In this document: positions 1,053 to 4,577 of the stretch, piece after piece
Layout: each line of letters starts with the position of its first letter
Numbering within the stretch: the stretch's first letter is position 1
Made by a program: the position numbers and the translations under genes
Source: a virus
Lineage: Duplodnaviria; Heunggongvirae; Uroviricota; Caudoviricetes
IMG/VR virus record: IMGVR_UViG_2648501400_000010
Length of the DNA: 4,976 bases
Strand: one strand, 5' to 3'
The notes under the pieces: generated by a model
The model's input: the letters and a program-made list of their open reading frames with translations, nothing else
The model's database searches: none
What the model was told of the DNA's origin: nothing

Positions 1053-1478
1053 TTAGTGCATCACCACAGCATTCCCTGCCGGGCCGCCGCGATTCATCTG
1101 GTCATACAAAACAACCGCTGACGCAACAAAATCATCGACATCCTTCACCAGCCGATCCCTCCGTTCGACGATCTCACGGTAATATTCAGAACTGTGGCTG
1201 CGCATACGGGCCACCAGCAAAGGCGGCATCGCCTTTTCGATCGCCGGTAACAGAGCCTGCATTTTTTCAACAGCATCAGGGGTGTCCTTCTCCACCCAGC
1301 GGAAAATTTTCTGGGTATTACGGGCCAGGGCTTCCGGATGGCTGTCGTCGTACAGTTCCGGGAACGTCATTCCCAGCTCGAAATACGCTTTGGTAATTTT
1401 CGCAGCCGGTACTTTTTCGCCGTCCGGGTGCGCCCAGACATTCATCGCCATGCGGATGTGTTCATGCTTGATTTTCAT
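1053..1478 (-). CDS. ydaT: YdaT-family protein (CII-position regulator / toxic protein of Rac-type prophages)
   Basis: 141-aa ORF starting MKIKHEHIRMAMNVWAHPDGEKV, which I recognise as the YdaT family of Rac/CP-933P prophages (from memory, not a search). SD GGGGGTG lies upstream of the ATG (complement of 1476-1478). It is immediately downstream of, and overlaps by 17 nt, the Cro-like gene. Confidence 0.85.
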   Translation of the reverse strand: MKIKHEHIRMAMNVWAHPDGEKVPAAKITKAYFELGMTFPELYDDSHPEALARNTQKIFRWVEKDTPDAVEKMQALLPAIEKAMPPLLVARMRSHSSEYYREIVERRDRLVKDVDDFVASAVVLYDQMNRGGPAGNAVVMH

Positions 1479-1737
1479 GAATCACCCCCGCCTCTGGTTG
1501 TGTGTTAGCCTGATACTCGACAGGTAAGCCGTCGGTTGGGTTGGGATAAGTACTGCCATCAATCTCGTGCGGAGTTACTATCCAGCCTGTTGCTTCGCAC
1601 CAGCGTAAAATTTTTTTCCCCGTAAGTTTCGCCCGTCCGGTAATGACATGGCTTACCATCCCTTGGGTTACCCCAACAATTTCAGCAAAATGCTTCTGAG
1701 TTATACCGGAATGATGCAAATATTCTCCAAGATTCAT
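1462..1737 (-). CDS. ydaS: Cro-like HTH DNA-binding protein (YdaS family)
   Basis: 91-aa ORF with a Cro/CI-type helix-turn-helix (QKHFAEIVGVTQGMVSHVITGRAKLTGKKILRW). SD AGGTGA (complement of 1741-1746) is 3 nt from the ATG. It is divergently transcribed from the repressor gene, the classic cro position. Confidence 0.8.
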   Translation of the reverse strand: MNLGEYLHHSGITQKHFAEIVGVTQGMVSHVITGRAKLTGKKILRWCEATGWIVTPHEIDGSTYPNPTDGLPVEYQANTQPEAGVIHENQA

Positions 1738-1844
1738 TGTTCACCTCATGTGATGTCATCACGATCATTAATAGCATTGTTATTTTTAAAAGTAAATAGC
1801 ATCACTATTTCAAAGAGATTAATAATCTTATTAGAATTGAAGGT
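1738..1844. promoter_or_regulatory. Divergent promoter/operator region (OR-like) between the cro-like gene and the repressor gene
   Basis: Perfect 17-bp inverted repeat AAATAG-CATCA-CTATTT at 1794-1810 and weaker copy TAATAG-CATTG-TTATTT at 1769-1785, centres 25 bp apart. Leftward promoter candidates on the minus strand: -35 TTTACT (complement of 1791-1796), 17-bp spacer, -10 TATTAA (complement of 1768-1773). Additional 11-bp palindrome TGATGTCATCA at 1751-1761 near the predicted start. Rightward -10-like AATAAT at 1821-1826 with no good -35. Confidence 0.55.
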
Positions 1845-2858: not shown

Positions 2859-2882
2859 AACCACCTTCGGGTGGTTTTTTTC
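2859..2882 (+). terminator. Rho-independent terminator after the toxin gene
   Basis: Stem AACCACC (2859-2865), loop TTCG, stem GGTGGTT (2870-2876), followed by a T-run to 2881, 15 nt after the parE-like stop. A T-tract is present only on the plus strand, so it is unidirectional. Confidence 0.75.
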
Positions 2883-2891
2883 TTGCCACGA

Positions 2892-2934
2892 TAATAGCAC
2901 TGCTATTTACATAATTAAATAGTAGTGGTATTGT
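2892..2934 (+). promoter_or_regulatory. PL-like promoter with paired operators for the rightward small-gene operon
   Basis: Operator-like inverted repeat TAATAG-CACTG-CTATTT at 2892-2908 and weaker AAATAG-TAGTG-GTATTG at 2917-2933, centres 25 bp apart. -35 TTTACA at 2906-2911, 17-bp spacer, -10 TATTGT at 2929-2934. Same motif and geometry as the sites at 1769-1810. Confidence 0.55.
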
Positions 2935-4335: not shown

Positions 4336-4577
4336 CCCTCTGTTATCAATTTTCTGGTGACGTTTGGCGGTATCAGTTTTACTCCGTGACTGCTCTGCCG
4401 CCCTTTTTAAAGTGAATTTTGTGATGTGGTGAATGCGGCTGAGCGCACGCGGAACAGTTAAAACCAAAAACAGTGTTATGGGTGGATTCTCTGTATCCGG
4501 CGTTAATTGTTAACTGGTTAACGTCACCTGGAGGCACCAGGCACCGCATCACAAAATTCATTGTTGAGGACGCGATA

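Follow-up and report, generated by a model that had tools for sequence, protein, structure and literature searches.

The junction between a Cro-like gene and a YdaT-like gene in an IMG/VR tailed-virus record (Caudoviricetes; IMGVR_UViG_2648501400_000010) carries an inverted repeat, TTGATT-N6-AATCAC, which raises the question of whether it is the binding site of a CII-type activator and, if so, where the promoter under its control begins. A preliminary description of the 4,976-nucleotide stretch of DNA analysed here (the window) had put the repeat forward as a candidate for such a site, accompanied by a PRE-like promoter pointing back through the Cro-like gene toward the repressor gene, with a −10-like GATACT on the plus strand. 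The explanation that we consider probable, as a single whole, is that an E. coli lambdoid prophage of the CP-933P/Rac type has its immunity region at this locus, that the dyad is the high-affinity operator (the "YdaT box", or OM) of the neighbouring YdaT, a prediction in the case of the AATCAC variant present here, and that this box and a proximal class II promoter of the PRE type would direct transcription antisense through the Cro-like gene into the repressor operon. Binding by YdaT and YdaT-dependent promoter activity have been shown by others on near-identical DNA and protein; the present analysis supplies the identity of the system, the variability of the last box position and the conserved −10-like element at a fixed offset.

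The immunity region and its mosaic joint

The genes of the window lie in the same order as those of CP-933P in O157:H7. The minus strand encodes an O-like replication gene (68-1030), ydaT, the gene of the CII-analogue activator (1053-1478; Pfam PF06254, E = 2.6e-9), and a Cro-like HTH gene in the ydaS position (1462-1737; Pfam HTH_3), the allele of which differs from CP-933P ydaS. Divergently, the plus strand encodes a PaaR-like repressor (1845-2345; Pfam HTH_3), a PaaA2-type antitoxin (2363-2554; Pfam PF21217) and a ParE toxin (2554-2844; Pfam PF05016), and this repressor and toxin-antitoxin operon (1845-2844) is the proposed target of the PRE-type transcript. The best match to the window in the collection compared, which holds no exact copy of it, is prophage DNA of E. 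coli with 98% identity across 90% of the window. The prophage may be cryptic, and the same ydaT module is carried by sequenced temperate phages, in which it is annotated as "activator protein cII".

Several other elements are recognisable around these genes. Within the O-like replication gene, where the replication origin of lambdoid phages usually sits, there are five iteron-like repeats with an exact 15-bp spacing (606-695). A 15-bp palindromic operator-like motif (AATAGCAnnGnTATT) occurs in four copies, two between the Cro-like gene and the repressor gene (1770-1784 and 1795-1809) and two just past parE (2893-2907 and 2918-2932), and these are probably the OR-type and OL-type operators of the window's own immunity specificity; the motifs are unlike the operators of CP-933P. 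A PRM-like promoter (TTCAAA-17-TAGAAT; 1809-1837, plus strand) stands ahead of the repressor ATG at 1845; its start would fall approximately at that ATG, which implies a leaderless mRNA of the kind demonstrated experimentally for paaR2 and lambda cI, and CP-933P likewise has a leaderless-type repressor promoter. Directly after parE there is an intrinsic terminator (AACCACCTTCGGGTGGTT followed by a T-run; 2859-2876, plus strand), beyond which a PL-like promoter with a TG (TTTACA-17-TATTGT; 2906-2934, plus strand) lies within the operator repeats. Further downstream, a full-length DicF small RNA (4352-4403, plus strand; Rfam RF00039, 76.7 bits, gathering score 48) indicates that the window reaches into a dicB/dicF-type division-inhibition operon beyond the immunity region.

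Alignment of the window with the CP-933P-type locus of O157:H7 (L001) revealed an abrupt change in relatedness. Positions 1053 to 1484 are identical at 426 of 432 bases (98.6%), whereas position 1485 differs and positions 1486 to 1545 agree at 13 of 60, the random level, which places a mosaic joint on the last base of the dyad (window 1485; L001 2986). The proteins encoded beyond the joint are correspondingly distant from their CP-933P counterparts, with 23% identity for YdaS, 35% for PaaR, 62% for PaaA and 65% for ParE. The same break, between window positions 1484 and 1489, was recovered by megablast in more than 1000 complete E. coli genomes, and the box core may double as a recombination joint between the ydaT and cro modules. 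Rac-type ydaT genes (left flank ACCCATGCCTGCCC..., for example in L002 and L003, and in Rac itself, L149) encode a protein only about 30% identical to the CP-933P type and to the YdaT of the window; the two types have in common the first eight codons (MKIKHEHI) and the box core, an island of about 30 bp between divergent flanks. The window is in this respect a natural test case, with the same YdaT and box core joined at the last dyad base to a foreign Cro/repressor module, and the joint separates the box positions that accompany ydaT from those at liberty to vary.

The YdaT box and its natural variation

Both motifs of the dyad exist as previously described, although one base further to the right than had been reported, since 1467-1472 reads CTTGAT and 1479-1484 reads GAATCA. 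The box occupies 1468-1485 and has no strand; it consists of TTGATT (1468-1473), the spacer TTCATG (1474-1479) and AATCAC (1480-1485). Its arms are perfectly complementary over TGATT (1469-1473) and AATCA (1480-1484), and the one mismatch is the outermost pair, T1468/C1485. The placement of the dyad at the overlap of the Cro-like and YdaT-like genes was also correct: the two minus-strand ORFs overlap by 17 nt, the Cro-like ORF ending at 1462, and the ydaT start codon (1478-1476, minus strand) lies inside the box spacer. When we searched the window for TTGATT-N6-AATCAA with at most one mismatch, we obtained one match compared with 0.04 expected, and only 7 of 200 shuffles gave any, so the dyad is beyond chance. 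A search of the whole window for further YdaT boxes, as possible PI or PaQ analogues, with up to three mismatches gave 3 matches against 4.0 expected, none of them above chance.

The preliminary description had tentatively mentioned a YdaT dyad resembling TTGATT-N6-AATCAA, and this form is correct. The footprint of CP-933P YdaT is a 25-bp region with 5'-TTGATTN6AATCAA-3' at the end of ydaS, designated OM, which is flanked by the weaker sites OL and OR; OM is bound at sub-micromolar affinity, and YdaT is a tetramer able to hold two DNA duplexes (Prolic-Kalinsek et al. 2023; PMC9986795). In the window, TTGATTTTCATGAATCAC at 1468-1485 matches this consensus at 17 of 18 positions, the one outermost deviation being accepted as in Rac, and the element has the gene-junction position and the adjacent cognate YdaT (PF06254) of a YdaT box. 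Bases 1468-1484 are identical at 17 of 17 positions to the OM oligonucleotide (PMC9986795, Table S5), and position 18 is C instead of A, which leaves the dyad of the window imperfect in comparison with that of CP-933P. The oligonucleotide (TCATGCTTGATTTTCATGAATCAACTCCAT) and the window (TCATGCTTGATTTTCATGAATCACCCCCGC) agree over 23 consecutive bases, TCATGCTTGATTTTCATGAATCA, and in both systems the 17-base core is positioned over the ydaT ATG. An equivalent of the weak flanking site OL is present inside the ydaT coding sequence (1425-1450, no strand), with 25 of 26 bases identical to the published OL oligonucleotide CCGGATGCGCCCAGACATTCATCGCC. OR, in contrast, appears to be absent from the window, in which everything to the right of 1485 is unrelated to CP-933P; its region falls in the replaced ydaS segment and has no counterpart save a half-site-like TGATA at 1511-1515.

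The protein that would read this site is nearly the same as the one studied. Over its full length, YdaT of the window is identical to PDB 8bt1 at 138 of 140 residues (98.6%), with Arg60 of the recognition helix present and the C-terminal tetramerisation helix included, and the only differences are V62/E63 in place of L/D, a variant also found in PDB 3c4r. The kind of element is already known: it is a YdaT box with a PRE-type promoter, here with the naturally occurring right arm AATCAC and fused to another immunity module. By analogy with the published boxes, we infer that the AATCAC variant functions in the same way.

To place this variant among its relatives, we surveyed about 120 viral contigs anchored on the ydaT coding sequence, a set that overlaps the dyad-anchored one and is therefore slightly biased toward the exact core. 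The 18-mers of these contigs end in AATCAA (62), AATCAT (33), AATCCC (18) or AATCAC (7), which amounts to 62 A, 33 T and 25 C at position 18, and the 16-mer TTGATTTTCATGAATC is invariant save for four variants at position 1 of the left arm. Positions 17 and 18 of the box track the neighbouring ydaS allele, and we looked for covariation of the YdaT recognition-helix residues 62-63 with these two positions and found none. The functional Rac box, in the orientation of the window, ends in AATCAT, which indicates that position 18 tolerates change (PMC11879457). A search with the same 16-mer in a one-genome-per-species collection returned 120 loci, compared with about 278 expected, all of them chance matches in unrelated taxa and none in a ydaT context.

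It is conceivable, and in our judgement extremely improbable, that the dyad has no function at the DNA level in this locus, and that it is kept as coding sequence (Met-Lys-Ile-Lys) with ribosome-binding-site spacing or as part of an mRNA hairpin, PRE having been inactivated in a decaying prophage by the A-to-C substitution together with the foreign ydaS. The left arm does correspond to ydaT codons 2-4, the mosaic breakpoint falls exactly at 1485, and the 18 AATCCC loci attest to a further variant of the right arm. The mRNA around the ydaT start (1448-1497, minus strand) also folds stably (−19.1 kcal/mol, z = −3.0, with 2 of 200 shuffles as stable) and sequesters the Shine-Dalgarno sequence and the AUG. 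This stem, however, uses bases other than the dyad arms, the left arm lying in a loop, and we rejected the hairpin reading of the dyad on this ground. The right-arm AATC, moreover, is invariant beside at least eight unrelated upstream sequences, synonymous sites at the proposed −10 are invariant (see below), and sequenced temperate phages carry the same module, all of which count against this reading. The hairpin itself pairs the ydaT Shine-Dalgarno sequence (1490-1486) and AUG (1478-1476) with ydaT codons 5-10, its upstream stem half being specific to the ydaS allele of the window, and it may couple the translation of ydaT to that of the Cro-like ORF that overlaps it.

Proposed position of the YdaT-dependent promoter

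A promoter that is YdaT-activated and otherwise silent, as the CII/PRE comparison of the preliminary description had anticipated, is on record for CP-933P and Rac. In CP-933P, expression from a PRE933P-gfp fusion requires YdaT, and PRM is unaffected by YdaT (Jurenas et al. 2021; PMC8630535). In Rac of K-12, the same "YdaT-box" lies over the ydaT ATG, activation toward the repressor gene depends on it, scrambling it abolishes a 29-fold activation by YdaT, and CP-933P YdaT cross-activates it (NAR 2025; PMC11879457). The location of the promoter has been described in conflicting ways. The study of Rac assigns the activation to PracR4, about 190 bp from the box, as "activation from a distance" (PMC11879457), and the Acta Cryst D text on CP-933P places OM downstream of PRE933P, states that it contains an alternative start, and calls YdaT a repressor (PMC9986795); neither placement agrees with the geometry proposed below. 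The CP-933P PRE reporter fragment itself (primers F-PRE and R-PRE) is about 120 bp long (L001 2951-3070) and extends from 18 bp upstream to approximately 85 bp downstream of the box; as this fragment suffices for the YdaT response, the promoter must lie within about 85 bp downstream of the box, toward the repressor gene.

We therefore compared the DNA that follows the box across its different contexts. Grouping 143 box-containing loci by the 100 nt past the box gave nine ydaS-allele clusters at 66% identity with a stricter gap penalty, whereas 62% gapped identity merged all flanks into a single cluster. A TAnnnT hexamer begins 22-24 nt after the 17-base box core in eight of the nine clusters: TATGAT in the Rac-type family and in a second family (L122, phage 640R1), TACAAT in the CP-933P family, TGcTATCCT in the L012 type, TGtTAACGT in the L006 type, TGtTAAGTT in L068, TAGTTT in the Tritos type and TGtTAGCCT in the family of the window, with the TG extension present on most of the weaker hexamers. 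Counted over all offsets, TAnnnT reaches a peak of 8 at offset 22 compared with a mean of 0.58 per offset, and among 3000 randomisations by rotation or shuffling, the highest count at any offset was usually 2-4, in rare cases 5, in one case 6 and in none 8. The pattern was first noticed by eye and then tested on these same loci, and the ydaS clusters have a distant HTH ancestry in common, two points that count against it. The C-terminal tails of the YdaS proteins show no relationship to one another and use three different stop positions, so the offset pattern is not explained by a coding motif common to them. Two families count against a −10 at a fixed offset, as one of the nine clusters has nothing there, and the Tritos family combines a TAGTTT that lacks the TG with a stronger TAAAAT at offset 45.

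In the window, this comparison points to TG-T-TAGCCT at 1503-1511 (plus strand; TG at 1503-1504, T, TAGCCT at 1506-1511, offset 22 after the box core) as the extended −10 of the putative PRE-type promoter. Given that +1 lies about 7 nt past a −10 hexamer, the predicted start of the YdaT-dependent transcript would be at 1516-1520 (about 1518, plus strand). Among 13 distinct sequences of the window's ydaS family, 1502-1511 is the most conserved stretch and is nearly invariant, and none of the 13 departs from the others at third-codon positions 1504, 1507 and 1510, compared with nearby third positions that differ in up to nine. These conserved synonymous sites argue for continuing selection on a promoter in this family, should the hexamer be correctly placed. 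At the −35 position (1483-1488, plus strand), which overlaps the right arm of the box, the sequence is CACCCC and lacks any −35 consensus; the earlier remark that no convincing −35 is present thus holds, as would be expected for an activator-dependent promoter. In the window, CP-933P and Rac alike, a consensus scan detected no sigma-70 promoter close to the box on the PRE strand, and since the scan also misses PracR4, it cannot discriminate between promoter models. We found no terminator-like site in 1300-1900, and none between the proposed start and the repressor gene.

The hexamer proposed initially, GATACT, is indeed present at 1512-1517 on the plus strand, and a promoter that used it as −10 would start at about 1524 and place the box centre at about −47.5. 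On a −10 matrix it scores above TAGCCT (3.4 compared with 2.3 bits, TAGCCT matching at 3 of 6 positions), and the key A and T are in place at its positions 2 and 6; TAGCCT is weak, so the window alone cannot discriminate between the two. Comparison with relatives speaks against GATACT, as its six positions differ in 6, 2, 5, 2, 6 and 5 of the 13 family members, with T1517 replaced by C in 5 of 13, and no other ydaS family among the nine clusters has a hexamer at its offset of 28. A centre at −47.5 would also be approximately half a helical turn away from the standard class II position of −41.5 and would fit no class I position. We accordingly regard activation through GATACT as unlikely, and the hexamer is probably not functional. 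The concern voiced earlier that the geometry was not ideal applies to GATACT and would be removed with TAGCCT, for which the box centre (1476.5) falls at −41.5; these comparisons suggest that transcription would begin about 6 bases upstream of the point first proposed.

The Rac locus bears directly on the possibility that activation is distal, with box-bound YdaT stimulating a promoter situated some 190 bp further along in ydaS, or else the PRM-like one at 1809-1837. The 29-fold effect in Rac was attributed to a promoter at such a distance (PMC11879457), and a tetramer that can hold two DNA duplexes (PMC9986795) could in principle act in this manner. PracR4, however, is a BProm/EcoCyc prediction, and, as far as the available text indicates, the assay of activation by YdaT included no mutation of it and its start had not been mapped (PMC11879457). 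Its hexamers, TTGACG and TACGCT (L149 990-956, minus strand), are 21 nt apart, a wider spacing than the usual 16-18 nt. Included in the Rac reporter, moreover, is a proximal TATGAT located 21 nt past the YdaT-box (L149 1157-1152), which corresponds to offset 22 from the 17-base core, the same offset as in the window; Rac further resembles the window in that core, in the ATG within the spacer and in a position 18 other than A (T). Together with the sufficiency of the CP-933P fragment of about 120 bp, the unresponsiveness of CP-933P PRM to YdaT (PMC8630535) and the absence of a plus-strand consensus promoter from 1486-1808 of the window in our scan, these observations make distal activation improbable. 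Rac YdaT is also reported to bind three operators in the racR-ydaS intergenic region and the host gene rcsA (PMC11879457).

A further alternative is that the box is a repressing or roadblock operator, serving ydaT autoregulation or the repression of a start inside OM. At the DNA level the box does overlie both the ATG of ydaT and its ribosome-binding site, the alternative start and the term repressor appear in the structural study (PMC9986795), and the weak CP-933P site OR overlaps the TACAAT hexamer, so that an excess of YdaT could shut PRE off. Nevertheless, both functional studies measured activation and not repression (PMC8630535; PMC11879457), and in Rac the expression of ydaT was unchanged with or without the box (PMC11879457). 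With just 18 bp of reporter insert upstream of the box, there is also too little DNA for a promoter that starts inside OM, which makes an OM containing the PRE933P start hard to reconcile with the reporter result. We consider a repressing role very unlikely.

Activation of a proximal promoter, our preferred reading, would also have a similar geometry in the three systems. By the same arithmetic from hexamer positions, the box centre lies at −41.5 in Rac of K-12, as in the window, and at −42.5 in CP-933P, where the hexamer is TACAAT at offset 23 and the TG-T-TAGCCT of the window is one base closer to the box. From these positions we infer class II activator geometry with the box at about −41.5, and the contact mechanism likewise. 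More broadly, we lean slightly toward the view that all YdaT-type regions, including Rac and CP-933P, share one architecture, in which a box at −41.5 or −42.5 serves a proximal promoter that lacks a −35 and often has an extended −10, at a fixed offset inside the 3' ends of unrelated cro/ydaS alleles, so that the unit from box to hexamer spans the mosaic joint. Such an architecture is not stated in the parts of the CP-933P and Rac literature that were available, and what is potentially new here is confined to the −10 at a fixed offset and the class II geometry.

A proposed CII/PRE analogue

The sequence of events that we propose begins with PR-driven expression of ydaS-ydaT, which would supply YdaT. 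The tetramer would use one pair of its POU-like HTH domains to bind the box and would activate a plus-strand promoter that is otherwise silent, an analogue of lambda PRE, with the extended −10 described above and the box, at about −41.5, taking the place of a non-existent −35. The resulting transcript would cross the Cro-like gene in the antisense direction before reaching the paaR-like repressor, paaA and parE, and in doing so would push the switch toward the repressed (lysogenic) state and raise expression of the toxin-antitoxin pair.

The parallel with lambda is one of position and logic. In both cases the element lies at the junction of cro with cII or its counterpart and is directed back through cro into the repressor gene, and lambda PRE shares with the proposed system its silence in the absence of activator, an activator site over the −35 region and a tetrameric activator. 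Lambda CII, in contrast, recognises a direct repeat, TTGC-N6-TTGC. A site of this type was absent from the junction, and elsewhere in the window there were four one-mismatch matches compared with 6.1 expected; the element thus corresponds to CII/PRE in function but falls outside that class. The YdaT fold differs from that of CII in combining a POU-like HTH with a four-helix bundle, and its 222 symmetry suits an inverted repeat. The proposed promoter also resembles class II promoters such as those activated by CRP or FNR from −41.5, in which a dyad at that position replaces the −35 and a recognisable −10, often with a TG, is retained, although the activator families are unrelated and the geometry of the window is itself deduced by comparison.

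A start at about 1518 with class II activation would bring the discordant accounts of PRE in CP-933P and Rac into agreement, and if the shared architecture is true, both the PracR4 "activation from a distance" in Rac and the coverage of the PRE933P start by OM would need re-interpretation. The YdaT box/PRE system is the CII/PRE analogue of a very common E. coli prophage family, present by DNA similarity in more than half of complete E. coli genomes, and under its control are the repressor of lysogeny as well as an addictive toxin-antitoxin pair of the ParE type.
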